Shown here: positions 2,089 through 59,333 of the stretch, piece after piece
Layout: every line of letters starts with the position of its first letter
Position numbering within the stretch: the first letter of the stretch is position 1
Notes under the pieces: model-generated
What the model saw: the letters and a program-made list of their open reading frames with translations, nothing else
What the model was told of the DNA's origin: nothing
The model's database searches: none
Made by a program: the position numbers and the translations under genes
Assembly: GCA_965218585.1 (NCBI GenBank)
Contig: CBDCLE010000022.1
Span: 125,526 to 189,525, forward strand
Length of the DNA: 64,000 nucleotides
DNA from: Terriglobia bacterium
Lineage (GTDB): Bacteria; Acidobacteriota; Terriglobia; 20CM-2-55-15
Direction: 5' to 3'

Positions 2089-2382
2089 CTCACTCCTATA
2101 TGCTTCTCGTGCCTCGATCCCGCACGGCTCTCCTCTCAAGAGTCGATTCGGGGTTCTGTTGATGATCTTTGGGGAAGTCTCGCCGGCCGGTCACCAGCGG
2201 CGAGCCTTACGGACTGAACGGGTGTGTGGGCTGTCTCCGGGAAAAAGACATCGTGCCATGGTTGCTTTACTCCTCCAGAGGAAACGAACAACCTCAAGAA
2301 TCTCGGGCATCTTATATAAGGAATGCGAGCGGGTCAATCGAAACCGGTTCAAGGGACTCTGTCGGGAGGAGCAGTGAAGGGG

Positions 2383-19989: not shown

Positions 19990-20775
19990 TTACTTGATTC
20001 TGAAAACGATGTCGTCGCCCAGTACGGTGAAGGCGTCGCCGTCCTGTGCGTCAGAAGTCTCGAGTGACCGGTTGGGTCCTGCCGAAATAACCATGACGGC
20101 GATGTCGGGCAGTCCAGTGAGCCCCAGATCCTGAAAGTGTTTGACGTGCAGTTTGCGGACGTTGATCATATATTTGTTGCCCCAGGGGTCGGTGCTCGAA
20201 AGGGTAGCGACATAAGGTCCGGACCAGCCACGTTGGGGGTCGCCGGCAATCGAGCCTCTCACCGGATAGAATTCGCTACCCGTGAAATTAAGCCCTCCAT
20301 CGGAAGTCACCCTGGCAATGTCGTTCGTTACGAGTTGCCCTTCGATGCTGTCATCGGCCGTACCGATCTGATGGCCAAATCTGTTAGCGCTGTTTGCGTA
20401 GTTTGTGCCAGTCGGGATGGTTTCCCACGAAGAGCTGATTGACGTATCGATCGTAGGATACGTTCCGTTCTCTGAGACAAGGTTGTCGAAGAAAACGTCG
20501 CTTGGGCCCGTGTTGTTACCTGCCTGGAACAACGGGAAAAACGAGTTGTCCTTATAGAAGGTAATAACTCCCTGACCAATCACTGAAACGTCGGCGATGG
20601 CCGCCTGGATCTTGGAGTCGTTGATCGCGTCGATGGCGCTACCGACAGCAACGCCGGCCAGCACAGCGCCAACGGCCATGGTAGCCGTCGCTTCGATCAA
20701 CGACGTTGCGACGCCTCGTGTCCCTCTGAGCAGCTTCTTGATCGTTCGCATGATATGTGTTTTCGCGGCTTCCAT
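19990..20775 (-). CDS. GspG-like type IV pilin (candidate major pilin)
   Basis: Basic leader KKLLRGTRGVA|TSLIE, hydrophobic helix, WSGPY, DPWGN, SAGPN; AAGGAG RBS; own terminator. Confidence 0.78.
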   Translation of the reverse strand: MEAAKTHIMRTIKKLLRGTRGVATSLIEATATMAVGAVLAGVAVGSAIDAINDSKIQAAIADVSVIGQGVITFYKDNSFFPLFQAGNNTGPSDVFFDNLVSENGTYPTIDTSISSSWETIPTGTNYANSANRFGHQIGTADDSIEGQLVTNDIARVTSDGGLNFTGSEFYPVRGSIAGDPQRGWSGPYVATLSSTDPWGNKYMINVRKLHVKHFQDLGLTGLPDIAVMVISAGPNRSLETSDAQDGDAFTVLGDDIVFRIK

Positions 20776-20835: not shown

Positions 20836-22087
20836 ACTCTAAGTGACTGAAAACACGACCTTCATGTTTCTATGTGTCCACCAATTCTGTAGACGGGCCA
20901 TTCCGGGGTCAACAACTTTGTGAGTATTACTATAGGAATTATAGGATCGGTTCGGCGCAAGATCTGCATCGAGGGCCCAAACTTTCGCCCGTGTTTTGGG
21001 TCAATTTACGGTGAAGAAAAGCCGGTTCGACGTTCCGCCATTTGGATCCGTCACAGCGATCGGGAGCACGCCGGAAGAGCCGACGAGAATGGAAGGCACG
21101 GAAATCACGATCTGCGTGGACGTCACGCTCGTGGGTGTCAGAACGGCTGTACCAAGCAGGACCGTGCTGGCCGAAGTGAAGTTGGAGCCGGTTAAGGTCA
21201 TGTTGAACGTGGCACTTCCCGCCGCGATAGACGAGGGCGAAAGCAACGCGATATTCGGGACCGCGTTCGTCTGGGGAGTAGAACCCACTGTAAATCCAAG
21301 AGTTTGACTCGAACCGCCCCCCGGTTGCGCGTTCTCCATGGTCATTGTCCAGGAACCGGAACAGATGACGGTAAACTCGAAGACCATCTGGTTGGAATTG
21401 AGCAGAGTTCCCGTTTCTCCATCGAAGTCCTCGGGTGTCATACATGCCGGGAGACCGAAGAACGCGGTTGTCGCAGAGTTGAAATTGGCTCCGTTCACGA
21501 TCAACAGCGCCTTGAACTTCTGCTCTGTTTCGCCGTCGAGGCGGAAAGGCCTGCCATCTTCGAAAGACGTTGGGGCAAAACTCAGGGATTCGAGGACCGG
21601 AATCGGGTTCACAACCATCAGCGGCAGTGTCTCCGACGGCGGGACTCGAGGAACGACCGGCTCAGGATTCTTGACCGTGATGCGCTTGGCCTGGCCGTCG
21701 GGTATCGACTTTGCAGGGATCAAGGCTGTCAGCGTCGTGCTGTTGACGAATTCGGTCGCTATCTCCTCGTCTTCAATCAGGACAGTCGCACCCTTGACGA
21801 AACTGAAGCCGACTACCGTCAGCGCCACTGGTGGTGAACTTTCGTCGGGTCGGGCAATGATCAGGTCGGGAGAGATCGACCGAAGTCCGGCGATCGGGTT
21901 CAGAACACCGATCGATAGCTCATTCGACGGTCCGGCAGTAGGCGATGGGTTGAGGATGGAAATCGCCAGATTCCCCGCTGTAGAGTCGAAAGTGGTCGGG
22001 CAGAGCCGCCCTTCCACCGTCCGCTCAATCAAACGGCTCGTGCAGTTTTCCCGCAAGCCGCTTTCCTCAGTTGCTCCTCGCTCGAAG

Positions 22088-23059
22088 TCACCGGTCCACA
22101 AGACCGGGGATCAGATGCGTCAGTCGGACCAAACCAAACTCCCGAATCAGTCGTCGTGCCGGATAGCGGCGCCACATCGTATTGCGCCACCGTTTCGCGA
22201 GAAACGAGTGGATACGGCGCTCGATCCAACGGTCCAACTGGTTAAAGAGTCGGCGCACCCGCGCTTTGCGGTAGTAGTTCCCCCAACCACGTGTGAGTCT
22301 GTAACCTTGTCGGGTCATCTCACGGTCAAACGGCGTCAGAAAGATGTTTGACCACAACGGACTGGCCACTCCCCCTTGGGGAACTCCCGTCCGCGTGGGT
22401 TGCCAGCAACCTCCGTCCAACACCCCCGAACCCAGGATGACCCGGATCAGTCCCAGTACTCGGCCGTCGCTGATCTCTTCGGCAATTAAGTCGAGGAGCT
22501 TCTCCTGGTCAATCGTGTCGAAGAACTGCCGCAAGTCGGCATCAACTACCCATAGGTCTCCCTCGCCCAGCTCTACCCATACTTTCCGCATCGCATCGTG
22601 AGGCGAACGCCCCTTGCGATACCCGAATGAGCAGTCCAGAAACAGCGGCTCGAAGATCGGTTCCATCCGCTGGACCAGTGCCTGCTGACATACTCGATCC
22701 ATCACGGCCGGTATCCCCAGCTTTCGCACTCCTCCGTCGGACTTCCCGATCTCGACTCGCTTAACCGGCTTGGGGCGATAACTGCCATCTCGCAGTCTTT
22801 GATGCAACAAGGCCAGATATTCCTCCTTGCGCGTTTCAAACTGCTCAACGGTCACCTTGTCGATGCCCGCACTACCTCGGTTCCGCTTCACCTTCTCCCA
22901 GGCCAACTCCAGATTCTTGCGACTAAACACCTTGTCGATCAGCGAGTGGACCTTTCGCTTCTTTCCCTGTTTGCTTTCCAATGTCGCTGTGTGGTGACGG
23001 GCGGCGGCTTCGTCCGAATCGCGTTTGGGTCTTTCACTAAGGGAACTGTCCAAGGTCAC
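22088..23059 (-). pseudogene. ltrA: Intron reverse transcriptase with 354-bp in-frame deletion removing WADD
   Basis: YRLTR|GWGNYY junction; lacks the equivalent of copy-1 17006..17359. Confidence 0.9.
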
Positions 23060-23559
23060 GATACCTCCGCCTTTCCCTCGCTCGCACAATCACAACTGAG
23101 TACAGGGACTTCCCCCTCCAACGGGCCTTTTGAACCCGCCAGCGCCGCTGCTTGAAGCAACGATCCGAGACCTTATGTTCGGTGTCTCGTTCCTGAGTAC
23201 TATTCCCTGATCCGATTCCTGGCACCGCGTCGGCCGGAAAGTTGTGTGCGTCAAGTTCTGCAAAAAGTATTTCCAAAAAATTCAGTTCTTGAGTGTCGAT
23301 CGCCGTCGGGCCTGTGGGAATGTGGGAATGCTGAGCGTTTTTGGCGAAGCTTTTCCAAGCCTCAGAGGGAATCCGCGCCTTTTGGCGGATTTCCTCTGAG
23401 GCGTCATTTCCATCAGGCCTCTGCGTTTCTTTCTTTTTTGGTTCTTTTTCTTTCTTTCGTCCCCTCGAAAGTTTTCCACAGCGATTGTTCGCTCCAGGAT
23501 GCTCTGTAATCGCCGATCGACATCCGAGTCGATCATTGGGTCGGCCCGTTGGGACGCGT

Positions 23560-24762
23560 TTAGGCAGCCGGCGTCTGACGGTGCCAGTCCCTTTTGTGTT
23601 CCTTCAACAGGTCCATGTTCAAGTAGCGGATCGCTTCGATCCAGTTCTCGTGCGTTTCGGTGGTCAGCGCCCGAATCAAACGCAGACAGCTGGCTGCGTT
23701 GGGGAATATCCGCACCACGCGCGTTCGCCGTTTGATCTCTTCGTTGAGCCGTTCCAGCATATTGGTGGATTTCATGTGTTTGTGATGCTGAAGCGGCAGC
23801 GTGTAGAAGCTTAGTGTCTCGTCGATATTGTCTTCGACCCAGTCGCAGAGTTTGGAATATTTCTGCCCCCACTTGCTCAACCATGTCGCCAGGTCCTGCC
23901 GCACTTCCTGGAGGTCCCGCCGGTCGTAGAGCCAACGCAGTTCCTGGAGACAATCGTCATCGGCTTTGCGCGGCAGATAATCCAATGCGTTTCTCAGAAA
24001 GTGGACGTAGCAGCGTTGCCAGATCGCTTCGGGCAGGACTTCTGCGATGGCTTTCTTCAACCCGGCATGATCGTCGGTCACCACGAACTCCACGCCGCAC
24101 AAGCCGCGTTGTTTCAAACTCAGTAACAGTTCCCGCCAACTGGTCGTGCTTTCCCGTTCCGCCAGTTCCACCGCCAACACACCGCGCCTCCCGTCCCAGT
24201 TGATTCCGATCGCCACCAGAACTGCTCGGCTCCGGATGACCCCGTCTTCGCGCACCTTCTCGTAGCGCGCATCCAGAATCAGGTACGGGTATTCTTCCTC
24301 CAATGCTCGCGTCGCAAACTTTTTCAGCTCCGTGTCCAGTGTCTTATTAATCCGGCTGATCGTGCTGGCCGAAAACGAATGCCCGCATAATTCTTCGGTG
24401 ATGGCCTTGACCTTGCGCGTCGACACGCCCTGCACGTACATCTCCGCCAAGCTGGCCACCAAAGCTTTCTCGCTGCGTTGGTAGCGTTCAAACACTTCCG
24501 TGCTGAACCGCCCGGCCCGGTCCTGCGGCACGCGCAGCTCCAGCTTGCCCACCCGCGTGACCAGGTCCCGCCCGTAATAGCCACTCCGATATCCGGTCCG
24601 CCCCGCCGTTCGTTCACTCTTGGCCGCGGCCATAACCTGCTCCATCTCCCCCTCGAGAATTTCCTGAACCACCTCCTGCACGACGCTTTTCAGCAGATCC
24701 TTTTCCTCTCCTAACAGTTCTTTCCAATCCACTCCCTTTCGCTTAATCTTAGTTCGGGCCAT
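23560..24762 (-). CDS. IS256-family transposase (element B)
   Basis: LRVPQDR, GVSTRKV, LDARYEKVR, WQRCYVHF, STNMLERLNEEIKRRT. Confidence 0.95.
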   Translation of the reverse strand: MARTKIKRKGVDWKELLGEEKDLLKSVVQEVVQEILEGEMEQVMAAAKSERTAGRTGYRSGYYGRDLVTRVGKLELRVPQDRAGRFSTEVFERYQRSEKALVASLAEMYVQGVSTRKVKAITEELCGHSFSASTISRINKTLDTELKKFATRALEEEYPYLILDARYEKVREDGVIRSRAVLVAIGINWDGRRGVLAVELAERESTTSWRELLLSLKQRGLCGVEFVVTDDHAGLKKAIAEVLPEAIWQRCYVHFLRNALDYLPRKADDDCLQELRWLYDRRDLQEVRQDLATWLSKWGQKYSKLCDWVEDNIDETLSFYTLPLQHHKHMKSTNMLERLNEEIKRRTRVVRIFPNAASCLRLIRALTTETHENWIEAIRYLNMDLLKEHKRDWHRQTPAA

Positions 24763-24778
24763 CGGTTCATCTCCTTCG

Positions 24779-26314
24779 GGCTCTTGTCAAGAAAGTTGTG
24801 TTTGAGGAGGGGATCATAAGTCCTCCTCAAAGCGGGATTGGAACATGGCGTTGAGCTGATGAAGAGCGGAATGGATGGAAGTGGCCGGAGATTTCCAACG
24901 GCCGTTGTGGAGGTGAGAGACGGCCAAGCCGAGTTTGAACTTGAGGGTGTCTTCGGAGTGAAAGTAGCCGCCCGAATTGCGGCGCATAATTTCCAGTTGT
25001 CCGTTGACGGCCTCGACGAGGTTGGTGGTGGAAAACGATTTGCGCATGAGGTCGGGATACTTGAGGAAGGCGAGATAGTGAGTCCGTTTCTTGCGGAGCC
25101 CCGCGATCCAGGAGGGATAGTGCTGGGCGAAGCGGTCACAGAGTTCCTCGAACCCTTGGTTGCCGACATCCTCACACCAGGAGGACTTGATGGCACGGAA
25201 GCGTTGCTGAAACTCGGCGGCGTCGGATTTGGAGAGATGGCTCTTAGCATTGCGCTGCATGTGGACGGTACAGAGCTGGATATCAGCATTGGGAAAGAAG
25301 CCTTCGCTGACCTTGAGAAGGCCGGAGAAATCGTCCTGGACGAAGATCATGACGCGTCGGAGACCGCGCTCGATCAGAGAGCGGAGAACCCCCTTCCAGT
25401 CTTCGAGATTCTCGCGGCCGGGTTTGGCAATGCAGGCCAGGACACGCTTCTTGCCGTCGCGGCCTAGACCCACCACCAGGTAGATACAGGCCGGACGCAG
25501 CCGGTCGCCGTCGCGGAGTTCGACGTACTTGCCATCCACGAATAGGGCCAGCAGATCCGTGTCCAGTGGCCGGCTGTTGCCAAGATCGAGTTCTTCGATC
25601 AGGCCCGACGCCACCCGTTCCAGATCCTGTTGGGACCCGGACAGGCCCATCTTCTGAAGCGCCTCCCGGGCCGCATTGACCGAACGGGATGAGGCCAGCA
25701 GTCCCAGCAAGATGGACTCGACTTCTTCAGGGTAGCCGCGCTGATACGGGGATGGTAGGTTCGCGGGACGGAAATCCCCGTTACGGGTTCGAGGGACACG
25801 GATATCGATCGGAACGCTGCCCACTTGGAGGGAGCGATCGTAAAAACCATTGGGACGGTCGTCGGGGCGGTGTTCAAGATGCAGGTCCCGTTCGGCCACA
25901 CTGAGGCCCGACAACAGGGTCCCCAGTACCTCGCGCAGGCTCAGATCGGCCAGCCCGGAGGCCAGCAGGGTCTGGATCTGTGTTTTTGTGGATTCAGAAA
26001 TCTGTTCTGATGGTACGCTTTCATTCGGATCTGTAGACATTGGGTTCAACTCCATAACTGAATAACTGATGACTCAGGTCTAGGGCTCCAGCGTGAACTG
26101 GAGCCCGCTTCAATTTCAGCGGGCGACGGGGGCTGTGGAAACTGCCGGGCCTATGGAAATCGGGGGAATCGGTCGCCTTCGGCGGCTTCTTCTTGATGAT
26201 TTCCACAGGCCCTTGGAACACCTCCGGCGTCCGCACAGTTCCCACAGCCCGGACGACGAATCTATCATTCTCTCTCAACTGGAAATCACGAAACACAACT
26301 TTTACGTTACTCCC
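24779..26314 (-). mobile_element. IS256-family element A, copy 2 (1536 bp)
   Basis: Same as 14950..16485; 8-bp TSD CGAAGGAG. Confidence 0.93.
24814..26055 (-). CDS. IS256-family transposase (element A)
   Basis: Protein identical to 15209..16450. Confidence 0.93.
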   Translation of the reverse strand: MELNPMSTDPNESVPSEQISESTKTQIQTLLASGLADLSLREVLGTLLSGLSVAERDLHLEHRPDDRPNGFYDRSLQVGSVPIDIRVPRTRNGDFRPANLPSPYQRGYPEEVESILLGLLASSRSVNAAREALQKMGLSGSQQDLERVASGLIEELDLGNSRPLDTDLLALFVDGKYVELRDGDRLRPACIYLVVGLGRDGKKRVLACIAKPGRENLEDWKGVLRSLIERGLRRVMIFVQDDFSGLLKVSEGFFPNADIQLCTVHMQRNAKSHLSKSDAAEFQQRFRAIKSSWCEDVGNQGFEELCDRFAQHYPSWIAGLRKKRTHYLAFLKYPDLMRKSFSTTNLVEAVNGQLEIMRRNSGGYFHSEDTLKFKLGLAVSHLHNGRWKSPATSIHSALHQLNAMFQSRFEEDL

Positions 26315-28831
26315 CTCCTTCGTTTCAAAGTTGTTGGTTACCAACTTTTCGGAGATACCCTGGCCCCTTCCTATTTCAGGGCCTTTTTGCAGAAACTCTG
26401 AAACATAACCGGCCGGAACTTCGCTCTCGTTTATATCCGCACCTACCTTGCGGGGCTCTAGGTCGATGTTTGTCTTCTCCGTTGCCCGCCCTTTCGTCTG
26501 CGGGTGCCACACCATCTCGACCTTACCTTCCGCCCGGACAATACCAGGCCTCCCTGGGTCACTCGTGTCTCTTCTCCACCGTGTCGCCCGCACACACCTT
26601 GGTGCGATGGGGGGGAACCAATGTGCCTTCGCCCCCATAGTGCGGGCTCGACCATTCCCCATCTTTGGCCGACCGGTTCATCCTCGGGATCGCTCCCGTC
26701 GATTACGACCCGGTGGTTCTCCTCATGCCCTTCAGACCCCACCTCGCGGTGGGCGCCCTGCCCTCCAAAGTTTCCGTAGGTGGATCCAGCTCTGTCTTGG
26801 CCGTATCCGGCTTTCGCCTTCGTGCCCGTTTAGGCATTTGCATACCCGCCTACACTTCGGCCAGTGAGGCATTACCCCCACTTATTGGATATCGACCCGT
26901 GGCCTCGGGCCGAGCGGGACTTTAACCCGCCGGAAACGCGTGCTGCCAGGCACGCACTACGAGATCCTCCGACTGAATGTTAACCTCGACTTCAGTCTCA
27001 TCGATGAACCTCGAGCCACGGAGGCTGCCGTTGACCAGACCCTGGGCGCCGGGTTCAAATCCGGTACCTTCCACGAAAATGTTGAAAGTCAGGCGTCCGG
27101 CAACGACTTCGTCGGGTACGCCTCTTAAGCCGGTGATGACAGGAGACGGTTTGCCGACTGAAAACGTCGTGGCGATCGACGAGACGATCGTATTGTCCGG
27201 TCCCGTGTTCTGGACCAACAGTTCACCCTCGCGAGCCAAAGTGAGCTGGTTTGCCTCGAGTCTTATACCCAGGGTGTTGGAGTCGACGAGGGTCGTTGGC
27301 AGCGGGGAACCTTCGAAAAATACCTGGCTCGTACTGATAAACGGGCCACCGGTTATGGCGACATCGATTCCGTCGGATCCGACCAGGACTCCAGGGGGTG
27401 TCACCGTCTCGATTACAGGGACGATCAACGTTCCTTCGAAATCGTTGTTCCGACTGTTGGAATCCGTGATCGTGATGCCGATGATGGGTGGAGACAGCGC
27501 GAACCCGGTTGCCCCCGCGGTCAATGTATAGCTTCCCGCCGGAATGTCCTGGAATGCGAAAGTTCCTGATGAGTCGGCCACCAGCACGCCGGATACTGGA
27601 CCTGATAGCAATACCGAGGCTCCGGGAATCGCTGCCCCTCCAGAGCGAATGCTTCCGACAGCAAGGAACTCCTCCTGCGCGGGAATCTGGATGCCCGGGG
27701 GGCATCGGTGAAGGGCAGGTTTCTCAGCGTCGTCCCAATATTGCTGCCAGTAATTGCCGCAGTCACGATGGGCGTCTCCGTCTGGACGACGACAAAGCCG
27801 CTCCCTTCGATCTCAGGTAGCAACTCGGACAGATTTTGAATCCGTTGCTGATACGGAGGCACCGTGAACTGCACTTGCGAAATGCGTGCTCCGTCGGCTC
27901 TGAGGACAGACAGCAGAATATCCGCATTGAAACCGTGAGGGTTCACCAGCGCGATTCCGTCGAAGAACTCACGGTCGATCTCTTCAGTATTGAACACGAA
28001 AGCATTCTTGCCCTGGATTTGACTTCCGTTCACGATCGCCAGGCTTGTTCCCAGGGTTGTTCCCAGCGCTACAACCGCATCCAGAGCCCCGGAACCCTCC
28101 ACAACGATCGAACCCATGGCGACAGCGGTCTCGTCGAACCCGAACAGGTCCCCCACGTTTTCCCGGTGAGAGGCTCCCGCACCCAGGGAGATCGAGGCCG
28201 GGTTGTTGGTGCCGGCTATCAACTGGCTGCCTTGGGACAGTGCCCGCACCGTGACAGACTGCGTGGAGTCAGCCGTATTGATTACCTGCAGGAGGGAAAA
28301 GAATCCGGCACCGTCAACGAACAATGGCAGCCGGATCGTCGCTGTCCGCGTGGCTTCTGAGCTGCCCCGGCTTATGGCCTCATCCGTTCGTGTCGTGACG
28401 TCCTCGTTAAGGTCCCCGTATTCCTTGATCAACGCTGAGGCTACAACCTCCCGTCTCACCTGAAAGACATTGGTGGCTGCCCGGACGAGCAGGTGCGATG
28501 TCTCGTTTGGGGGTGCGAGGGCGGTTCCCAGCAGGGCCGCCACGTCTCCATGGAAGTTGCCGTGTGGAGGCAGGGCGATCTCGCCCGAACCGAGTGCCAG
28601 GCCGTTGGGAGCGACCGCGATCACGAATACGCGTGCTTCGTTTCGTCCGGGATTGAAAACGTCGAGAAATGTCTTGCCGCGCGTGCCGTGTGCGAACGGC
28701 ACAACAATACGGGCTCCCGGGTCGCCGGGCCCGGCCACTTGTTCAATCTTGCCTGCTGGTCCTAACGCTGCTGTGACTTGGAGGGGCGTTGCGCTGCTGA
28801 CAGTCACCGAACCTGTGGTTGCCGCACCTAG

Positions 28832-30568
28832 CCCGCATGTTTCACCAGTCCGGCGATCAGGGGGATTTGGGCAGTAAGAATCGGATTCGGGAGGATCTGG
28901 GTTCGAATTGGGCATGTGTGGCGTGACTCGGCGGTGTCGACAAGCGGGAGTTGCTGCGTTTTCGGGTTCAGAAGAGGGTGACGAAACGCACTGAGACAAA
29001 CCTCGGCGGAGCCGAAAAGAACGAGTCGATTTTGGCGCAGGGGATCGGGTCGGTTCTCAGCAGCGCAGAGGAAGCGCCTGCAGGTTTCGATGGACGAGGG
29101 CAAAGACCTCGGCGTAGGGATAGGCTTCCGACATGGAGATCCAGATGTTGCGAACCGTCAGACGGACTTGAGCTCCGATCTTGAGGAGCTTCAAGCGGAT
29201 CGTCTGGCACTGAGCGCGGGCCAGATCGGTATTCTTCAGTCCCAGACGGCGTAACGCGTGCAGGAGCATGTAGGCGGCCGAGGACAGATAGAGCCGGAGT
29301 TGATTGGCGCGCATGGTTGCCGCGCTGGTCCGGTCGGCGAATAGATCCAACTGCTGTTCCTTGATGCGATTTTCCATGTCGCCCCGCGCACAGTAAAAGT
29401 CTTCATAGAGGGCGCGGGCGTCCAGGCGTTCCGGCGACAGTGAGGTCACAACGAATCGAGGATTGGCGCCTTTCTCCAGGAACTCGGCCTTGCCGATGAC
29501 GCGTCGGGTGCAGGTCCAGCTCTTCCGAGTGCGATACCGGAAATCGTTAAACACCCGCGCCGGTTTCCCGGTGTCGTTAAACTCGGCTTCGGCCTGACTC
29601 ATCGATTCAGCGATCTCGCGCTTGAGCCGATCGTTCTTGGCCAGACCCACCACGTAATCGACCTGGTGGGCCTCGCACCAACTCAGCAATTCATCCCGGC
29701 AAAAGCCCGAGTCGGCCCGGATGATAATCGACACCTCCGGCCAGCTCTGCCGGATCTGGCCGATGATGCGGTTCAATTCCTCGACGGCGCCGTCCGCACC
29801 GTCGACATTGGAGCACCGCAACCGGGCGCATAGCAGATGCTCTCCCGAAAAGATGTAGAGCGGCAGATAACAGTAGTTGCCGTAGTAGCCGTGAAAGAAC
29901 CGTCCTTCCTGATGGCCATGGATCGGATCATCGGTCGCATCCAGGTCCAGAACAATCTCCTCGGGCGCCGATCCGTGAGCCGCCACAAATGCATCCACCA
30001 TCCAGCGGTCGATCTTGTCCGGGTCCATGGCCATCTTCTTGTACCGCTCCTTCCCATCGACTTGCTCCCCGGTCAGTTCCAACCGGTTCAGCGTACACTT
30101 GCCCGCCAACGCTTTTCCCCGGTCTCGGGCCTGCCGCCGCTTCTCCCCCAGTGGATCGGCCTTATCCACCGCCACGGCCAGCATCGGATCGGTCCGCAGT
30201 TGGTCATGATCGTTCAGATCCTCGTAGCCCAGACAGAGTCCGTAGACGCGCTGCCCCAATAACTCGCTCACCGTGTGTTCGATCAACCTCGCGTCCCGGT
30301 AATCCCTGAAACACTCGGCCAGTCCGGCGATCAGACCCGTTCGCTTTTCCACTTCCCTCAACAGCAGAACCCCAGCGTCGGAGGTGATCTTTCCGCCGTC
30401 AAAACGCGCCTTCACTTTTCGTTGAAGAAGTCCGTGAAATTCGAACGTCGTTTGGTTACACTCTGTTCTCATAAGGGCCGTCTCCGTTTGGCTTGTTAAA
30501 CGTTTATTTCAAAACGCTTTATGCCAGACAGGGCGGCCTTTTCTGGTCCTATTGGTGAAATATGCGGG
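28832..30568 (-). mobile_element. IS1380-family element
   Basis: IRs CCCGCAT(A/G)TTTCACCA; 4-bp TSD CTAG. Confidence 0.92.
29057..30472 (-). CDS. IS1380-family transposase
   Basis: FDGG.ITSDAG, GYEDLNDH, LDLDATDD, RADSGF, Y..RGDMENRIKE. Confidence 0.95.
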   Translation of the reverse strand: MRTECNQTTFEFHGLLQRKVKARFDGGKITSDAGVLLLREVEKRTGLIAGLAECFRDYRDARLIEHTVSELLGQRVYGLCLGYEDLNDHDQLRTDPMLAVAVDKADPLGEKRRQARDRGKALAGKCTLNRLELTGEQVDGKERYKKMAMDPDKIDRWMVDAFVAAHGSAPEEIVLDLDATDDPIHGHQEGRFFHGYYGNYCYLPLYIFSGEHLLCARLRCSNVDGADGAVEELNRIIGQIRQSWPEVSIIIRADSGFCRDELLSWCEAHQVDYVVGLAKNDRLKREIAESMSQAEAEFNDTGKPARVFNDFRYRTRKSWTCTRRVIGKAEFLEKGANPRFVVTSLSPERLDARALYEDFYCARGDMENRIKEQQLDLFADRTSAATMRANQLRLYLSSAAYMLLHALRRLGLKNTDLARAQCQTIRLKLLKIGAQVRLTVRNIWISMSEAYPYAEVFALVHRNLQALPLRC

Positions 30569-31005
30569 CTAGGTCCGTAGCCGAGAACCGACTCTGGGTC
30601 CGGGGGAGAACCGTTTCGAAACGAACCGTGGCCACACCCTCTTCAGTGAAAAACTGGATCTGTGCTTCGGCTACCGTCTGTCCGGTATTGACAATAGTGA
30701 TTTCAGAGCCTGTTTCGCCCGTAAAGCGAGGGAAGTGATAGGCAAACGCCGCTTCTGTGTCCTGTGCCAGGGCGGCCCCCTGGAGGGTCAGAAGGACGCA
30801 TACCGACAATGCCAGAATTCGCATACGCATGAGCGAAACCTTTGCCGCCAATCCCCCGGCCGGTCCCGTCGAAGAGACGGAATCCATTCAACCTGCTGAA
30901 AAGGCGGGCTAAAACATTAGCTGAGGGACCCCCTTGAGTCAAGGGAGATGCGCATTTTTTGCGCGTAGAGGGAAGAAGGCGGTTACACGGATGGACAAAT
31001 CCTGT

Positions 31006-31608
31006 CTATCTGACGCGGAACACGATGTCGTCACCACCCACGGCGATCTCGGGTTGTCCGGAGCCGATGTTCTGAGTGAATTCTGTTTCGATGTCGCCGT
31101 TTGGGCCAGCGGAAATGATCATGCCTGCCCGATTGACGCCGAAGGCGAGGCTTCCTCCGTTTACAAGATACGCGTTACCCCAGGGGTCTTCCCCGAGTTC
31201 CTGAACATAGGGGCCGCGCCAGGCAAACCTGCCGCTCGTGCCGTAACCAGGGTCGTTCCGGTCGAGTATGTCGCCCAAGTCGCCCTCAGTTCCCGTCAGC
31301 CAGCCCGAGGACGTGGAGTCTGAAGGTTTCGTCCCGGGACCGGCCAGAACGTCAAATATGGAAGACGAGGTCGTGATGCTGACGCCGGACTGAAAAATGG
31401 GCCATTTACCCGTGGACTGATTGAAGTTACGGATCCCCCGGCCTATGTTCTGGACTTCCAACTCGCCCCGGGTTATCCGGGCTTCGTTGATCAGGTTGGT
31501 CAGCATGGGTGTCAGGACCGCCGCGAGGACAGCGATGACAACCATAACGACGATCAATTCCAGGAGCGTAAACCCTGCTTTCATCGAATGTTGGTTTGAG
31601 ACACGCAT
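31006..31608 (-). CDS. GspG-like prepilin
   Basis: G|FTLLELIVV, WRGPY, DPWGN, SAGPNG, DDIVFRVR. Confidence 0.85.
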   Translation of the reverse strand: MRVSNQHSMKAGFTLLELIVVMVVIAVLAAVLTPMLTNLINEARITRGELEVQNIGRGIRNFNQSTGKWPIFQSGVSITTSSSIFDVLAGPGTKPSDSTSSGWLTGTEGDLGDILDRNDPGYGTSGRFAWRGPYVQELGEDPWGNAYLVNGGSLAFGVNRAGMIISAGPNGDIETEFTQNIGSGQPEIAVGGDDIVFRVR

Positions 31609-31613
31609 CGTTT

Positions 31614-32801
31614 CTATGGCACCGTAAAAGTATTGGACGAGCCGTCGCTGAAGGTGATTGTAAATGTGATACCGCTCACCGAAACGTTGCTGGACGCACC
31701 TGTCTGCGCGTCCTCGAAATCTCTGATCTCAACGACAACGGACTTACCCACGCCTGAGATTTCAAGGTCGGGCGTGACCGTCGTTTCCTGTTCCACCCGG
31801 ATCGGGACAACCTGATTGGGCTTGCCCGATCCGTCCACGGTTTCTGCGGAAGAAAAAGTGACGGTCTCTCCGGAACCCAGGCGTGTACCTCCGTTGTCGG
31901 TGTTGTAGTTCCAGACCGCGGAGTTGCCAAAACGTACTTGTTCAAAGTATGAGACCGGTGACGTTGTGTAGGTAGCGGTCATTGAGGTGATGCTCAACTC
32001 ATCCGAGTCGAAGTTCGTGACCGTGAATTTCAGTCGCGTCCCCTGTAGCTTGGCCGATCCGTCCTCGTACGTCAGTCGGGGATCGATGGAAATGCTCCGG
32101 AATCCGAACGACACGTCGGAAAAAGAAAAGTCCCCGTTCGCGTCTGTGACGGCGAACACCTGATCCACGGCTCCGTCGACGGGCGTATTGAGAGTCACCG
32201 AGGCGAAGGGGACCGTCTGGTTGTTCCGCATCAGTGTTCCCGTGACCTGGGAAAAGATCTCGGCTTTCAAGATGTCGATCGACAGGTCGTCACCGCCCCC
32301 CGTATCACCGTCGGCACCCAGACTGGTGATCCGGGCCGCCACCAGGGCCCCATCCTCTCCCGGATCGTTTCGGTTGAATTCGGTAGATGTGTACACAAAC
32401 GGATTGCCGAATGGATCCGAATCGAGCGCCGCCAGGTCTTCCACGAACGGGTCAGGAGCATACGGGCCAATCCAGCCGGCACCCACCAGGTTCGTCGTGT
32501 CGAACCCGTAAACGGGCTGACTGCTTCTGATCCACAGGTCTGCGAGCGCGGACGGGACATCGCCCATGCTGCCGACAAACCCGAAGTCGGCTCGGCCGCC
32601 TTCGTTAACGAGACCGGCGTTGCCTGCGATTGCGGTTTTCAGGGTTTCCAGGTCTTGACGGGTGTCCAGGCTCCTTGCCGCAGTCGTGACCTGGTCGACG
32701 ACCGGAGCCGAGACGGCTATCAGAACGGCAGCTGTCCCGATCAGGATGATGGCAGAGAGAATGCCGATGCCTCTCGAATGACGTGGGTTCTTTCTCCTCA
32801 T
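31614..32801 (-). CDS. Large pilin-like protein (395 aa) lacking Glu+5
   Basis: RHSRG|IGILS; FGFVGSMG, GWIGPY, DPFGN; beta-sandwich domains; ends TFSDGS. Confidence 0.8.
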   Translation of the reverse strand: MRRKNPRHSRGIGILSAIILIGTAAVLIAVSAPVVDQVTTAARSLDTRQDLETLKTAIAGNAGLVNEGGRADFGFVGSMGDVPSALADLWIRSSQPVYGFDTTNLVGAGWIGPYAPDPFVEDLAALDSDPFGNPFVYTSTEFNRNDPGEDGALVAARITSLGADGDTGGGDDLSIDILKAEIFSQVTGTLMRNNQTVPFASVTLNTPVDGAVDQVFAVTDANGDFSFSDVSFGFRSISIDPRLTYEDGSAKLQGTRLKFTVTNFDSDELSITSMTATYTTSPVSYFEQVRFGNSAVWNYNTDNGGTRLGSGETVTFSSAETVDGSGKPNQVVPIRVEQETTVTPDLEISGVGKSVVVEIRDFEDAQTGASSNVSVSGITFTITFSDGSSNTFTVP

Positions 32802-33985
32802 GGCATTTGCTTTGTAGTGAAAAGTGTTGTCGACCCGTCGCTGAACTCAATCTCGAATGTGATCCCCGTCATATCCACGGGTCCCGCCCCGCCCCCGGTC
32901 GCTGCGTCGCTGAACTCGTCGACGTGGATCTCGAGCGTCCCCCCTGTGCCCACGGAGTTAATGGTGATCTCGGGTACCTGGAAGGACAGGGAGGAAACCA
33001 CGACGTGCGTGGGCTCCTGAGTCACTCCCGTCCCCGCAACGAGCTCGGACGAGAACGTGATCACGTCACCGGATCCCCCTCTCGGGGTCGTGCTATTGAA
33101 CACCTGGCTGCCGTTGATTGTGACCTGCTCAAAATAAGCTTGGGGGCTTGAGGAGTACGTCAACGTAAGGGAAGTGACGGTCGCGTCCTCTTCCCCGATG
33201 TTTTCTATGAAGAACTCAATATCGTCCAGGGCATTGCCGTCCGAAAAGGCCGTATCTGCTTGATAGGACAAGGTCGGGTCGAGTTCGATGACACGTTCTC
33301 CATGCGGTATGGTGCCGAATGTGTAAAAACCGTCAGCGTCCGTTGTTGTCATGTCTGTCGTAATCGAACCGGCGCTCGGATAAGAAATCGTGACGTCGAC
33401 ACCAGGTATTGTCATCCCGCTGGGAGCCCGAATATATCCGAACAGGTCGGATGAAGCTTCGCCCTCGTATATTTCGATGACCTCGTCGTCCGACGTGTCC
33501 GAGGCGCTGTCGGGACCAATCGATCGGATCGTTGCGATAACCGTGGATCCTGTCGATGCGCTCGTCGTCTGGCTGGTGTCTAGTTCGAGGGGGTTTCCCC
33601 ATGGATCTTCGAGAAAGTCGAAAGGATCGGTCGCGATGTAGGGTCCCCGCCAACCCGATCCGAGTTCGATGATAGCGGTGACGGCGTAAGCCGCCTGCGT
33701 GTCGATCTCGACCAGATCGGCGAGAGCCGCGGGGAAGTTTCCCATGTCACCAAAGTATCCAAAGCGATTGACGTTGGTCTGGCCGCTGCGAACGCGCAAG
33801 GGTTCGCCGATCAAGGCCCGCTTTACACGCTGGATCTGTTCCTTGGCCTGAGTCGATCGGTTTTCCTCCATCGTCATGGGAACGGCAAACCCGAAACTGA
33901 ATGTCAGGACGGCGATGACAGCCAGTGACAGGGACACTTCGAGCAAGCTGACTCCACGCTGATGTTTGGTAGGGTTCGGTCTCAT
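32798..33985 (-). CDS. Large pilin-like protein (395 aa)
   Basis: RG|VSLLE; FGYFGDMG, GWRGPY, DPWGN, TDADGFYTF..IPHG.R, FSDGS. Confidence 0.82.
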   Translation of the reverse strand: MRPNPTKHQRGVSLLEVSLSLAVIAVLTFSFGFAVPMTMEENRSTQAKEQIQRVKRALIGEPLRVRSGQTNVNRFGYFGDMGNFPAALADLVEIDTQAAYAVTAIIELGSGWRGPYIATDPFDFLEDPWGNPLELDTSQTTSASTGSTVIATIRSIGPDSASDTSDDEVIEIYEGEASSDLFGYIRAPSGMTIPGVDVTISYPSAGSITTDMTTTDADGFYTFGTIPHGERVIELDPTLSYQADTAFSDGNALDDIEFFIENIGEEDATVTSLTLTYSSSPQAYFEQVTINGSQVFNSTTPRGGSGDVITFSSELVAGTGVTQEPTHVVVSSLSFQVPEITINSVGTGGTLEIHVDEFSDAATGGGAGPVDMTGITFEIEFSDGSTTLFTTKQMP

Positions 33986-35175
33986 GGCGTGGGATCCGTG
34001 GGCACGACGACAACGACCGATCCATCGCTGAAGGTTACGACGAGATTGACTCCGACCATGTCCACCTCTGTTCCATTACCCGTCAGTGCGTCTTCAAAGC
34101 CGTTCATCTCGATTGTCAACGAACTGCCGCGGCCGATGTCGCCGATGATGATGTCGTCGATATCTGTAACGGCCGACTGGAGCCTTATAGGGAGCGACTC
34201 CGCTACCTGGCCAGTCCCTTCTATGGTTTCCGCAGAAAAATTGACTGTATCGCCACTGGCAAACCGTGGGCTAGTGGAATTGAAGACGGTCGTATTGCCC
34301 ACGCGCATCTGTTCGAAGTACGCAGGAGGCGAAATGTTGATGTCGACCGATATGGACGTGATATCCGTGTCCGTGGAGGCAAAGTTCTTAACGACAAATT
34401 CCACATCGTTGTTGTCGTTGCCTGTGACGATAGCCGTATCCGGAGCCAGGACGAGTAAAGGTTCGACCGTCAAGGAGCGGTTGCCAAACGGGATGTCGTT
34501 GAAAAAGTAATAGCCCAGCGTATCGCTCTGTGTCGTTGAGGACGTCAACGTGCCACTCGCAGGGTAGTTCACCGTCACGCCTACACCGGGGACGCCGGCG
34601 TTCTCTTCGTCGCGAACAAATCCCTGAACACGGGACAATGTTGTCGCGTCGAAGAACTGGAGCGTGATGTCGTCGTTCCCACCGGAAACTCCGTCTCCGC
34701 CAAACGAGGTGAGCTTTGCCTGCACATCGGCTCCGAAGTCCGAGTCCGTAAAAGTGGAATCATCGTAAAACAAATCCGTTCCCCAGGCGTCTTGTCCCAG
34801 AGCCTCCAGATATTCCACGACCTGGAGATCCACATACGGTCCGTTCCAGCCGGCGCCGGTTTTCTTGGCAGTATCGAAGCTAAAATCGGGCTGGCTGCCC
34901 ATGACCCAGAGGTCTTCGAGCGCTGGCGGCGGGTTTCCCATGTCGCCGATGTAACCGAAAGACGTCCGGGCCTCATTGACGACGATGACGGGGTCGCCGC
35001 CGATCCCGCGTTCCACGCGACGCATCTGTTCGATCGTCGTTTCGCGTCCCACCATGTCGAAAGCCGAATTGGACACCGTGATCAGTCCTACCGAAACTGT
35101 GGCGATGATCGCCAGTGTGAAAACGGTTTCGATCAGGCTGAAGCCCTGTTCGTTGGTGACTTTCTTTAAGATCAT
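33982..35175 (-). CDS. Large pilin-like protein (397 aa)
   Basis: QG|FSLIE; FGYIGDMG, GWNGPY, DAWG, FSDGS. Confidence 0.82.
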   Translation of the reverse strand: MILKKVTNEQGFSLIETVFTLAIIATVSVGLITVSNSAFDMVGRETTIEQMRRVERGIGGDPVIVVNEARTSFGYIGDMGNPPPALEDLWVMGSQPDFSFDTAKKTGAGWNGPYVDLQVVEYLEALGQDAWGTDLFYDDSTFTDSDFGADVQAKLTSFGGDGVSGGNDDITLQFFDATTLSRVQGFVRDEENAGVPGVGVTVNYPASGTLTSSTTQSDTLGYYFFNDIPFGNRSLTVEPLLVLAPDTAIVTGNDNNDVEFVVKNFASTDTDITSISVDINISPPAYFEQMRVGNTTVFNSTSPRFASGDTVNFSAETIEGTGQVAESLPIRLQSAVTDIDDIIIGDIGRGSSLTIEMNGFEDALTGNGTEVDMVGVNLVVTFSDGSVVVVVPTDPTP

Positions 35176-36330
35176 TGGCGCACCGTCGTGAAAATCGCGA
35201 CCGATCCGTCCGAGAACGTCGCCTGGAATGTGATTCCGGTCATGTCCACGTTTCTCGCACTTCCGGTTTCAGCATCCTTGAAGTCCTGGACCTGAACGCG
35301 AAGCGTACCCCCTCGCCGGGCGGCCTCGCCAATGTCCTGATTGGGCGTCAGGGATAGGGGTGACTGGACACGCACCGGGATGGTGCCTCCGGTGATGGAC
35401 CCTGTGCCTATCACCGTCTCTTCCGTAAAGACCACGGTTTCACCACTTCCCACGCGATCAGACGTGTTCGTGAACACCGTAGAGTTGCCCAGCCGCAGCC
35501 GTTCGTAGAACGCTACCTGATCGGGATGCAGAAGCGTCAGGCTTGTGAAGGATGCATCGGTCGATGAAAAGTTCTGGATGACGAACTCGACGTCATTGTC
35601 CTGCCCTCCGGTCGTTACCGCAGTATCCTGGACATAGACCAGACGTGGTTCGAGAGCCAGGCTCCTGTTTCCAAAGGGTACATCGGTGAACGTGAACGCC
35701 CCGTTCGAATCGGTCTGCAGGGTCGCGCTCGAGTTGACGGAGGCGAAAGGGAACTGGAGCGTGGCTGTGACGCCCGGAAGCGCGTTCCCAACGGCGTCTC
35801 GAACGAAACCGACGACTTCGGAAAACAATTCCGTTTCGTAGATTTCCATCGTCAGATCGTCGCCGCCAGCAGACGTGTCCGGACCGTAGCTTGTCAGCTT
35901 GGCACGTATCGTCTGACCCGTTTGGGCGCTGGTTTCGTTAGTCACTTCATGTCGTCGAACCACTCAAGAGGGGGAACCTGGATGTAAGGGCCGGCCCAAC
36001 CAGTGCCGAGCTTGATGCTCGTATCGAAAGAAAAAACCGGCTGTGAGCCTAGAATCCAGAGTTCGTTCAGCGAAGCCGGAAGGCTGCCGGTGTCTCCCAT
36101 GAAACCGAAATCAGTTCGCGCCTCACCCGTAATTATGCGTGGGTCGCCGATGATGGCCTGTTTCAGCGCCACCAGTTTTTCAAGAGTTTCGTTTTCTCTT
36201 TCAGCTGCGAAGGGTTGCGTGAACAGGGAGAAAGCGCCCGAGGCCACGAGAGACAGGATGGCGACCGTAACAGCGACTTCGAGCAGGGAAACACCCCTGC
36301 ATTTAGGCTGTGTAAGTTCCCCACGAACAT
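35172..36330 (-). pseudogene. Large pilin-like protein, disrupted
   Basis: RG|VSLLE frame lacks a start unless the G run near 36320 gains a base; DPWG segment missing with frameshift near 35950; remainder paralogous to neighbours. Confidence 0.72.
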
Positions 36331-36454
36331 CACCATACTATTATCGCCGGATGACAAAAGGGCCGCAAGCTATTGTGCTGCGGCCCCTTCCTGAGCGGTC
36401 TTCGTAGTCTTGGTCGGAATCAATCGGAGGCGATCCCAAATTCAAACGAGTCCG

Positions 36455-36566
36455 TCAGCGGATGCGCTGGACGACGTCATCGTTGCCGACGGCGAATGTC
36501 CCGCTCGCTGCCTGTTCGTACTCCGTGTCGATCGTCTTGTCGGGTCCTGCCGAGAGTACAAAGGCT
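36455..36566 (-). pseudogene. 3' remnant of a GspG-like pilin
   Basis: AFVLSAGPDKTIDTEY...GNDDVVQRIR matches C-terminus of 31006..31608. Confidence 0.75.
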
Positions 36567-37607
36567 AACATGTACCAGATCTTTCTGGCCGGCATGAACA
36601 CGCCCGGTCGTCCCGTGGGTACCATGCTGTTTCTGGGGCCGACAGGGTCAGGCAAGACCCGGATCGTAGAAGCGTCGGCAGATATCCTTTTTGGCAGTCC
36701 CCGCGCCTTCATCAAAATCGACTGTGCTGAATTTCAGCACAGTCACGAAATCGCCAAGCTCATTGGCTCTCCCCCGGGATATCTGGGACACAGGGAAACC
36801 CCTCCCTTATTGACCCAGGAAGCGCTCGACCAGCACCATACCGACGATCTTAAGCTCAGTTTTGTCTTGTTTGATGAGATCGAAAAGGCCGACGACGCGC
36901 TTTGGCAGCTTCTGTTGGGAGTGTTGGACAAAGGAACGCTCACCCTGGGCGACAACCGCCAGGTCGATTTCTCACGGACGATGGTGGTGATGACGTCGAA
37001 TCTTGGCGCCGCCGAAATGAGCGATCTGATGGAAGGCGGGATTGGTTTTGCGAACAACCCGGCCGAACCTGAAGACCTCGATTCGATTGACCAGAAGATT
37101 TATCGAACCGCGACCTCGGTTGCGTGCAAAAAGTTCACGCCCGAGTTCATGAACAGGATCGACAAGGTCGTCGTGTTCCGGACACTGACCCGGGATCATC
37201 TCAGTCAGATAGTCGACCTGGAGCTGGATGAAGTGCGAAACCGGATACTCGAATCGCAGGCGGATAGACAGTTCATTCTCCATTGCAGCGACCGCGTTAA
37301 GGACTTCTTCGTCGAGGAGGGGACCGATCCCAGATATGGTGCCCGCCACCTGAAGCGTGTCATCGAACGTTACCTGGTCTTCCCCCTGTCCAACCTGATT
37401 GCGACTGGACAGATTGAACTCGGAGACGTCGTCCATGCAGATCTGGAGGAAGAGGGCAAACAGCTCACCTTTGTCAGGGAGCCTTCGGCTGCTTTCGTGG
37501 ACCCGTTGGACAACCTGAGCCGTTTCCCCGGCCAGACTTCGGAAACCGTCGATTCATCTGACCCTGTGTCAGGCTCCTCCCAAGAAAGCGTTCAGAACGT
37601 ATGTTAA
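36567..37607 (+). pseudogene. ClpA/ClpB D2-type AAA+ ATPase, 5'-truncated
   Basis: RP.G..LFLGPTGSGKT, LIGSPPGYLGH, LFDEIEKA, PEFMNRID, YGARHLKR; no IVGQ..A segment before the junction. Confidence 0.75.
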
Positions 37608-53171: not shown

Positions 53172-53305
53172 GGAGTACATGAAACGAAGGCCCCATCCAG
53201 TGCGGAAACACCAGATGGGGCCATTTCAACTAACCTGCGATTGCTCACAGGATAGCCGACACAGCTTCATTGTGGGCCAATCGCCATCGAAAGGCAAGGC
53301 CCACG

Positions 53306-59214: not shown

Positions 59215-59333
59215 CGGGCCATGCTAACCCCTGCGTTTTGTGTGTAAAGTATATAATCACCAGTTGTTCCTGGGAACGGCCTCGATGGGTTCATTTGGCA
59301 TTGTCAAGTTAAACTGCTTGACGAGATTATCGA

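Follow-up and report, generated by a model that had tools for sequence, protein, structure and literature searches.

A conserved cassette of four paralogous GspG-derived modular pilins, the last lacking Glu+5, in Acidobacteriota and Brocadiia: a candidate tip module of a type IV filament

In a 64,000-nt stretch of the genome of a Terriglobia bacterium from the phylum Acidobacteriota (GenBank assembly GCA_965218585.1, contig CBDCLE010000022.1, positions 125,526 to 189,525; this whole stretch is referred to as the window, and coordinates are those within it), we analyzed a tandem cassette of four genes, A to D, that encode large type IV pilin-like proteins, together with the gene for a smaller pilin that follows them. 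The five genes are listed here; a slash in a leader motif marks the end of the leader.

36330..35172, minus strand: gene A, first large pilin, broken (sequence, tblastn, and Pfam)
35175..33982, minus strand: gene B, 397 aa, intact, leader G/FSLIE
33985..32798, minus strand: gene C, 395 aa, intact, leader G/VSLLE, three-part architecture as in B
32801..31614, minus strand: gene D, 395 aa, intact, proposed cap, leader RG/IGILS
31608..31006, minus strand: 200-aa GspG-like pilin, candidate shaft subunit or connector, leader G/FTLLE

The original prediction, made from the letters of the DNA alone, had described four translationally coupled, paralogous genes at this site. Their tandem order on the minus strand and their tight coupling were borne out by our analysis, with all three junctions (A/B, B/C, and C/D) being 4-nt start/stop overlaps of the ATGA type, but only genes B, C, and D are intact. 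A gap of 5 nt separates gene D from the gene for the 200-aa pilin, whose presence had been read correctly. The span first assigned to the system (31006..36566) holds the cassette and this pilin; positions 36458-36565 at its far end, however, are the remnant of a different pilin gene and do not belong to gene A. In alignments of the window proteins, C and D are each 35% identical to B, and the fragments of A are 39% and 43% identical to it. This paralogy is not due to chance, because a tblastn search with an ortholog of A found B, C, and D in the window with E values of 1e-92, 1e-71, and 3e-60, respectively.

As read from the sequence, all four large pilins start with a short polar leader that ends in Gly and is followed by about 20 hydrophobic residues. 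The leaders are of the class III type, and that of A (G/VSLLE) lies out of frame with the gene's own ATG. At position +5, Glu is present in A, B, and C and is replaced by Ser in D, and the earlier reading of these leaders was thus confirmed. In gene B, a GspG-like head (residues ~12-178) is followed by a CarboxypepD_reg domain (~183-262) and by a C-terminal domain without annotation (~263-397). The architecture proposed for the whole set holds insofar as each of the four proteins has the leader, the GspG-like head, and CarboxypepD_reg, but in A it is spread over a broken gene. Three head motifs had been assigned to every member (FG.xGDMG, GWxGPY, and D[PA]WG), and GWxGPY indeed occurs in 4/4 of the large pilins. 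The other two vary: D reads DPFG and FGFVGSMG, A reads FGFMGDTG, and A is devoid of D[PA]WG because a deletion of about 31 nt took that segment. The C-termini of the pilins share the ending ...TFSDGSxxxFT.

Pfam searches found CarboxypepD_reg in all four window pilins, N_methyl in A, B, and C, and weak T2SSG matches in B, C, and D. Among 23 family members, CarboxypepD_reg was present in 23/23 and N_methyl in 21/23 (both at E ≤ 0.05), and T2SSG in 10/23. When set against the cut-offs of the models, CarboxypepD_reg scored 33.3 bits in B (cut-off 32.3) and 28.1 bits in the A fragment; PF07963 N_methyl scored 25.2 bits in the A fragment, 20.4 in B, and 17.4 in C (cut-off 21.2) and gave no match to D; TIGR02532 scored 16.6 in B and 17.9 in C (cut-off 16.3); and PF08334 T2SSG stayed below its cut-off of 21 in B (14.3 bits), C (16.6 bits), and D (17.2 bits). 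The 200-aa pilin exceeded both Pfam cut-offs (N_methyl 30.3 bits, T2SSG 25.8 bits). With the GspG model TIGR01710 (cut-off 88.85), the large pilins scored about 16 and the 200-aa pilin 59.2, which is also short of the cut-off.

The descent of the heads from GspG, another element of the original prediction, is upheld by profile comparisons. GspG heads are marked by the motif series GWxGPY ... DPWG ... SxGPDG. A head profile of the B group aligned by hhalign with the flanking ~200-aa GspG-like pilins over 148 columns (probability 99.0%, E 2.6e-18), and this homology spans the whole head, beyond the N-terminal helix. The profile of the ~200-aa pilin group matched the heads of solved GspG chains (E 5e-4 to 4e-3). 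By these profiles, the heads of the large pilins are GspG-derived and homologous to the flanking GspG-like pilins. The GspH, GspI, GspJ, and GspK models and those for PilV, PilW, and PilX in Pfam and NCBIfam gave no match to A-D at E ≤ 0.01, in line with the view that the four proteins are not ordinary GspHIJK or PilVWX orthologs.

The last ~130 residues of the large pilins matched no Pfam family even at E ≤ 5, and in hhalign comparisons this C-terminal domain showed no relation to the CarboxypepD_reg slice, to the head, or to the large secreted protein encoded downstream (see below; probability ≤6.6%). A profile search of the PDB returned matches to the N-terminal helix only, apart from a hit at the level of noise (E 0.99) and two weak ones, with E values of 0.12 and 0.23, that fell in the region of CarboxypepD_reg. 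Identity between the paralogs amounts to 18% in the N-terminal helix, 36% in the head, 35% in CarboxypepD_reg, and 41% in the C-terminal domain, and the domains are similarly conserved both within orthogroups and between paralogs. Judged by their sequences, A-D satisfy the definition of modular pilins, i.e., a pilin motif combined with a domain that is not specific to pilus biology.

The distribution of the cassette was followed by database searches and a survey of gene neighborhoods. A protein search with B covered 5.8 billion proteins and gave 6758 candidates and 92 relatives at E ≤ 1e-3, which bear generic names only; a profile search of 1.84 billion representatives gave 298 proteins at E ≤ 1e-30. 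One genome per species was scanned, yielding 37 loci (L001 onward), each of which was viewed over ±10 kb with its open reading frames scored by the hidden Markov model of the family. The set of four genes in the same order was found in 11/37 loci in addition to the window, so that the proposed existence of conserved four-gene sets was supported by the survey. Four consecutive large genes are present in L001, L003, L004, L005, L006, L007, L009, L011, and L013; the first cassette gene of L002 is in pieces, and L008 has three genes and the start of the fourth at the end of its contig. These 11 loci stem from 10 genomes, L001 and L003 lying 21 kb apart on one Terriglobia chromosome (OZ252023.1), and the hosts belong to the Acidobacteriota (Terriglobia, Solibacteraceae) and to the Brocadiia of the Planctomycetota. 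None of the 37 loci derives from an isolate. The junctions between the genes in the relatives with the cassette are 4-nt overlaps or gaps of ≤15 nt. Among the relatives, L001 and L002 have the closest counterparts of B, C, and D of the window (66-70% identity; B vs. L001_B 66%, C vs. L001_C 66%).

The gene at the fourth position lacks Glu+5 in 12/12 sets (11 loci and the window), and the first three positions carry Glu in 33/36 and Asp in 3/36 cases. A profile search for the D group returned 72 proteins, and the alignment of this group comprised 54 proteins including the window's D, with 6 gapped at +5 and P0270 left out on account of its low group margin. Glu or Asp was found in 0/48 D orthologs in which the +5 column is filled; the residues present are Ala (12), Ser (9), Thr (9), Val (9), Met (3), Gly (2), Ile (2), Trp (1), and Leu (1). 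In the results of this search and of that with B, the proteins have generic names or none. The relationships of the paralogs were examined in a quick maximum-likelihood tree of 52 rows (support from the Shimodaira-Hasegawa-like approximate likelihood ratio test, SH-aLRT; midpoint-rooted for drawing), in which seven ~385-aa proteins of distant loci served as the outgroup (five from the graded triplets described below, plus L022 and L025). The D proteins of both phyla group in a single clade of this tree (SH-aLRT 98), and C makes up one of the two sides of a branch with a support of 78; the four-way split therefore predates or travelled with the cassette. Within the Acidobacteriota, the A and B orthogroups have SH-aLRT values of 99 and 82, respectively.

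Several other pilin sets were noticed in the surveyed loci. Directly upstream of the large cassette on the Brocadiales contig of L008 (777-4196) are four mid-size paralogs (306, 285, 273, and 265 aa) that make up a second set, the first gene of which lacks Glu+5 (G/YVLII). At 14647-18683 in L001, a further pilin-like run (165, 466, and 382 aa) has a last member without Glu+5 and is followed by a subtilase. One member without Glu+5 occurs in the variant sets of L016 and L020 and in the second set of L001.

Gene A of the window opens at the ATG at 36330 with MFVGNLHSL, and a 1-nt shift at the A-run 36304-36302 separates this start from ...KCRG/VSLLE. After ...FDDMK (~35945), ~31 nt are absent relative to the ortholog, with loss of the residues R-D-A-W-G-T-E-I-Q; the reading frame changes at the deletion, and a premature TGA at 35944-35942 results from it. 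When the closest intact ortholog of A (P0063) was used in tblastn, its residues 4-129 aligned in frame -1 (36322..35945) and its residues 138-398 in frame -3 (35954..35175). Gene A is disrupted by a frameshift in L001 and, in L002, by an insertion of ~227 nt (9234-9460) after ...DAVGNPLPGVT plus a frameshift. The frameshift common to L001 (~10000) and L002 (~10003) sits in a poly-G tract (G7 and G8, respectively), where the window has G5 and keeps the frame. Either phase variation by slipped-strand mispairing or an error in sequencing the homopolymer may account for this frameshift.

Between L001 and L002, the ratio of nonsynonymous to synonymous substitution rates (dN/dS) is 0.23 for B, 0.16 for C, 0.13 for D, and 0.08 for the 200-aa pilin, and these four genes are thus under purifying selection between the two loci. 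The fragments of A gave values of 0.10-0.12. These values rule out gene A as a long-standing pseudogene in the clade of the window, and any loss of A is therefore recent. If this loss is real, B-C-D may be a sufficient core, to which the I-J-K trimer offers a parallel.

The DNA on both sides of the cassette in the window bears further signs of erosion, which the earlier reading had missed, and of mobile elements. It contains the following features.

36458..36565, minus strand: remnant of an upstream ~200-aa GspG-like pilin gene, last 36 codons (tblastn)
36355..36390, minus strand: GC-rich hairpin followed by UUUUG, terminator-like, between the remnant and gene A (RNA fold)
36462-37607, plus strand: ClpB/ClpA-like gene, second ATPase domain only, true start probably the ATG near 36570
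21001..30887, minus strand: gene for a ~1030-aa secreted choice-of-anchor Z (CoaZ) protein, in four pieces (tblastn with the L003 ortholog)
28832-30566: insertion sequence (IS) with a 471-aa DDE_Tnp_1_4 transposase (E 8e-158) and 25-nt inverted ends at 28823-28847 and 30553-30577
13970-17670 and 21979-26960: composite of a group II intron (RVT_1 and GIIM) and IS256-type transposases
19990..20775, minus strand: 261-aa GspG-like pilin of a second type that closes the locus, leader ...GVATSLIE

The remnant was recognized with the 204-aa upstream pilin of L004, residues 169-204 of which are 64% identical to the translation of 36565..36458 (tblastn). Exactly where this truncated gene ends, the ClpB-like gene begins on the other strand; it consists of AAA_2 and ClpB_D2-small and corresponds to positions 585-849 of 853 in the NCBIfam ClpB model. 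The boundary looks like a rearrangement junction formed by deletion or inversion. Folding of the RNA of 36460..36335 gave a minimum free energy of -46 kcal/mol (z -3.25, 200 shuffles), and a consensus terminator scan did not flag the hairpin at 36355..36390. A search for sigma-54 promoters (TGGCAC-N5-TTGC, ≤1 mismatch) found none upstream of the pilin genes, and a sigma-70 promoter scan gave 0 sites. Rfam searches of the window, L004, L005, and L006 returned two tRNAs only.

The CoaZ protein has a signal peptide, CarboxypepD_reg, and TIG/choice-of-anchor Z repeats, and ends in ...SNR[LV]FFTVN. Its gene is divided into the pieces 30803..30567, 28831..27707, 27680..26961, and 22086..21004 by the IS at 28832-30566, a frameshift near 27700, and the ~5-kb composite at 21979-26960. 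The IS sits after codon ~80 of the gene, and the same transposase family is found at the ends of L001 and L003. The two copies of the composite have in common five segments of 313-1536 nt that are 100% identical, inverted, and arranged in a different order, which could be a signal of mis-assembly. With its upstream pilin gene truncated, gene A broken, and the downstream protein gene split, the locus in the window is decaying.

The 261-aa pilin scored 23.6 bits with T2SSG (Pfam) and is 72% identical to a 265-aa protein of L006; a homoserine dehydrogenase gene follows it on the other strand, as is also the case in L004 and L006. A 271-aa paralog of this pilin is encoded at 1324-2139 (minus strand); the two share an unusual leader (...GVATSLIEA), and both are conserved in L004 and L006. 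Mobile DNA is unusually abundant over the entire window, which contains further mobile genes at 53270-54115, 56077-57969, 59327-60151, and 63343-63999 (IS1-like, rve integrase, a Transposase_mut fragment, and a Tn3 transposase at the end of the window).

The genes that accompany the cassette in its relatives bear on its possible role. A gene for a ~200-aa GspG-like pilin lies upstream of the cassette in L001-L004 and L006, and downstream of it in L001-L006. In L005, the order is a signal-peptide protein, A-B-C-D, a 204-aa pilin, PilB/GspE, GspF/PilC, and a 511-aa PilM-like protein, and the run ends with two small membrane proteins, one of which (201 aa) is weakly GspC_delta-like; this run has no pilin genes apart from the cassette and the one for the 204-aa GspG-like protein. 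The ATPase scored 564 bits for GspE and PilB alike, both under the cut-off, and its N-domain has the MshE-type motif for cyclic di-GMP (50.6 vs. 38 bits); the platform protein was best matched by GspF and the PilM-like match was weak, and neither a secretin nor PilT was found within 10 kb. As a gene order, the arrangement in L005 is consistent with a minor-pilin (tip/priming) role. Beside the pilin genes, L002, L004, and L006 encode a PAS histidine kinase together with a sigma-54 response regulator; L006 also contains genes for a leader peptidase, for an ATPase of the ExeA-like kind, and for a PilW/Tgl-like protein with tetratricopeptide repeats. A large CoaZ-type secreted protein gene follows the downstream pilin in 4/8 acidobacterial loci (the window, L002, L003, and L006), and the intact 1026-aa ortholog of L003 matched CoaZ_rpt_PGGG with an E value of 6e-64 (NCBIfam). 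The C-terminal beta-propeller of PilY1 was not found in the CoaZ-type protein, which gave matches only to CarboxypepD_reg, TIG, CoaZ_rpt_PGGG, and, weakly, DUF5719.

More distant members of the family occur in WOR-3, Latescibacterota, Omnitrophota, Zixibacteria, and others. Their clusters adjoin a PilM-PilN fusion, PilO, an AMIN-domain secretin, and an A24 peptidase (L024, L028, and L029); PilM scored 142.8 (cut-off 133), and the PilT of L029 scored 447.9 with its NCBIfam model (cut-off 319.1). A Peptidase_A24 gene is present in L006, L024, L028, and L029, and none in the window. In L016, a 138-aa pilin is found with PilB-PilC-PilMN-PilO, and family members of 167, 403, and 404 aa close the cluster, the last without Glu+5. 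Graded triplets of ~165, ~265, and ~385 aa are present in L024, L026, L028, L029, L033, and L036; their members consist of the head, the head with the sandwich, and all three domains, respectively, all have Glu+5, and resemble a domain-accretion series. The suggestion in the original prediction that the genes define a new type IV filament subtype was not supported by this survey, in which the linked machinery scores as ordinary PilB/GspE, PilC/GspF, PilM(-PilN), PilO, secretin, A24 peptidase, and PilT.

Type IV filaments grow from tip to base, and each Glu5 forms a pair with the N-terminus of the next subunit toward the tip (PMC10191384, PMC7541494). The core minor pilins form a tip complex that is capped by a subunit without Glu5 and from which assembly starts (PMC10191384); GspK and PilX are without Glu5 and occupy the tip position (PMC7541494). 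Like the PilHIJK and GspHIJK genes, the cassette comprises four adjacent pilin genes, the last of them without Glu+5 in the window and 11 loci, and has as its neighbors a GspG-type pilin gene and, in L005, the genes for the extension ATPase and the platform. It differs from them in that its members are close paralogs of one architecture, 35-43% identical over their full length, whereas theirs have four divergent folds; each is ~395 aa long and has two extra domains; and all lie outside the sequence models for those proteins. Moreover, K of the GspHIJK/PilHIJK sets has an inserted domain, while D of the cassette is set apart from A, B, and C chiefly by the absence of Glu. We read the cassette as one that would act like PilHIJK/GspHIJK yet is not a member of these sets, either by the sequence models or by the diversity of folds.

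The combination of a pilin with CarboxypepD_reg is not new: a pilin joined to PF13620 (IPR012902-PF13620), a carbohydrate-binding-like fold, is the third commonest modular-pilin architecture in Dataset S1 of Raynaud et al. (2021), with 66 proteins (PMC8179133). Like those modular pilins, the cassette proteins graft a non-pilus domain onto a pilin module; unlike them, they add a further conserved domain without a family. The survey deals with single proteins, and we found neither a four-paralog cassette nor a Glu5-less member described in the available parts of that paper (PMC8179133). In Streptococcus sanguinis, PilHIJK is replaced by the modular pilins PilB and PilC together with PilA (PMC10191384).

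Larger tip components are known from several systems. In Tad pili, TadEF/CpaL stand in place of PilHIJK. Cyanobacteria have two alternative core sets, with a PilX that carries an extra beta-solenoid (PMC13759059). Docking of large partners onto the cap pilin takes place through a strand at their C-terminus, and the MshQ gene lies just downstream of the gene for the cap-type pilin (PMC13533445); the position of a large secreted-protein gene just after a cap-type pilin in mshDOPQ resembles that of the CoaZ gene (PMC13533445). To judge from these sources, CpaL/TadG (Tad), MshQ (MSHA), and the cyanobacterial PilX are large subunits or partners at the tip and supply the initiation complex with additional domains, as the cassette proteins would do, but no homology between them and the cassette proteins was detected. 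The Verru_Chthon cassette proteins A-D (NCBIfam TIGR02596, TIGR02599), which are prepilin-like, are a different family, their models matching the 200-aa pilin in the N-terminal helix only and far below the cut-offs (22.9 vs. 70 bits and 17.3 vs. 256.5). A Fibrobacter paper was rejected as a precedent, the pilins and CarboxypepD_reg lipoproteins in its available text being separate proteins (PMC6851124). No description of this cassette was found in the literature, most subscription journals being outside the search.

From the presence of four adjacent genes, their tight coupling, the one Glu5-less member, and a GspG-type pilin and assembly genes nearby, we consider it probable, if by no means assured, that the cassette is the minor-pilin initiation/tip module of a type IV filament with GspG-type subunits and that D is its cap. 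For such a module we infer co-assembly, an apical position of D, a location at the tip, the stacking order, and ligand binding as follows. The class III leader would be cleaved, the N-terminal hydrophobic helix and the GspG-like head would enter the filament core, and the CarboxypepD_reg beta-sandwich and the ~130-aa C-terminal domain would project outward. Overlapping start and stop codons would provide the four subunits in near-equal amounts. D, without Glu+5, would need no subunit above it and would take the apex, with C, B, and A stacked beneath and templating the addition of the ~200-aa GspG-like pilin, which would build the shaft. The tip would then show up to eight beta-rich domains, which probably bind a polymer or surface. 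In some genomes, the CoaZ-type secreted protein may ride on this tip or be a substrate.

Several observations weigh against an initiation/tip module. Gene A is broken in the window, L001, and L002, so that four subunits are not always required. By their sequences, the outward domains are as conserved as the heads, which is unlike a variable adhesin. The graded triplets of WOR-3 and Latescibacterota all keep Glu+5, and the family is thus not always one that supplies a cap. In the Brocadiia, the cassettes of L009, L011, and L013 lie amid housekeeping genes with no adjacent ~200-aa pilin, although two T2SSF-domain genes are found ~5.6 kb downstream on the opposite strand in L013. The window contains no ATPase, platform, or secretin gene, and canonical PilHIJK-type genes may lie elsewhere in genomes that were viewed only over ±10 kb.

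The evidence is mixed as to the choice between an extended pilus and a short endopilus for secretion. The machine might be a type II secretion system (T2SS), with the four proteins forming the tip of a short periplasmic endopilus, not of a surface pilus, and recognizing and expelling substrates such as the CoaZ protein; we regard this as unlikely, though it deserves to be weighed. The heads and flanking pilins are GspG-like, and the order of a G-like pilin followed by A, B, C, and the Glu5-less D mirrors gspG-H-I-J-K. In L005, the ATPase is tied between GspE and PilB, the platform is closest to GspF, the 201-aa neighbor is weakly GspC_delta-like, and PilT is missing within 10 kb; related clusters have a PilM-PilN fusion, as in GspL, and the large secreted protein gene follows the pilins in half (4/8) of the acidobacterial loci including that of the window. 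The clusters of other phyla, however, have a PilQ-type secretin with AMIN domains and a PilT above its cut-off (447.9 vs. 319.1), and the sigma-54 two-component pair beside the pilin genes in L002, L004, and L006, which parallels PilS/PilR of type IVa pili, likewise speaks against a T2SS. Moreover, we know of no pseudopilus tip with 260 extra residues per subunit.

Less likely still, the large pilins may be shaft or interspersed subunits of a thick heteropolymeric filament decorated with beta-sandwiches. The even conservation of the distal domains would suit such a filament, and in L024 and L028 the graded members of ~165, 265, and 385 aa are the sole pilin genes beside PilMN-PilO-secretin, which leaves the role of major pilin in these two loci to one of the three. 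According to the modular-pilin survey, a modular pilin whose linker is flexible could also sit in the filament body (PMC8179133). The strict loss of Glu+5 in one of four positions, however, would have no role in a repeating shaft, and the equal-dose translational coupling together with the separate small GspG-like pilins favors a minor role. That the proteins are a lineage-specific expansion of prepilin-like, membrane-anchored periplasmic or surface proteins that are processed but never polymerise is very improbable: the cassettes of L009, L011, and L013 without an adjacent ~200-aa pilin (only that of L013 being near T2SSF-domain genes), the repeated loss of gene A, and the heavy erosion tolerated at the window locus would agree with it, but gene order and the cap-like member are conserved, relatives in several phyla are linked to PilB/PilC/PilM, and all members are under purifying selection.

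Going beyond an initiation/tip role, the cassette could be a re-invented initiation complex of the Acidobacteriota and Brocadiia, in which a GspG-type modular pilin gave rise to four copies, one of them turned into the cap by the loss of Glu5. The ancient divergent PilH/I/J/K set would then have been replaced by a pseudo-symmetric, four-armed tip with eight beta-rich domains. The licensing shown for PilY1/CpaL might here fall to the conserved strands at the very C-termini of the pilins or of the neighboring CoaZ protein. We advance this only tentatively and hold it to be rather doubtful. The value of the finding is lower for the window's own copy because that locus is partly degraded. Minor-pilin tip complexes set when and where filaments start and what they bind, and knowledge of them comes mostly from PilHIJK/GspHIJK. 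If the re-invention is true, the shaft subunit of a type IV filament can give rise anew to a tip that works by cap and template. A conserved cassette of four modular pilins with nearly the same architecture and a dedicated Glu5-less member would be a natural experiment that could separate essential traits (four subunits, one cap) from historical accident (four different folds). The cassette resides in abundant, little-studied soil Acidobacteriota and in Brocadiia, for which it is a candidate means of attaching to or sampling polymers.

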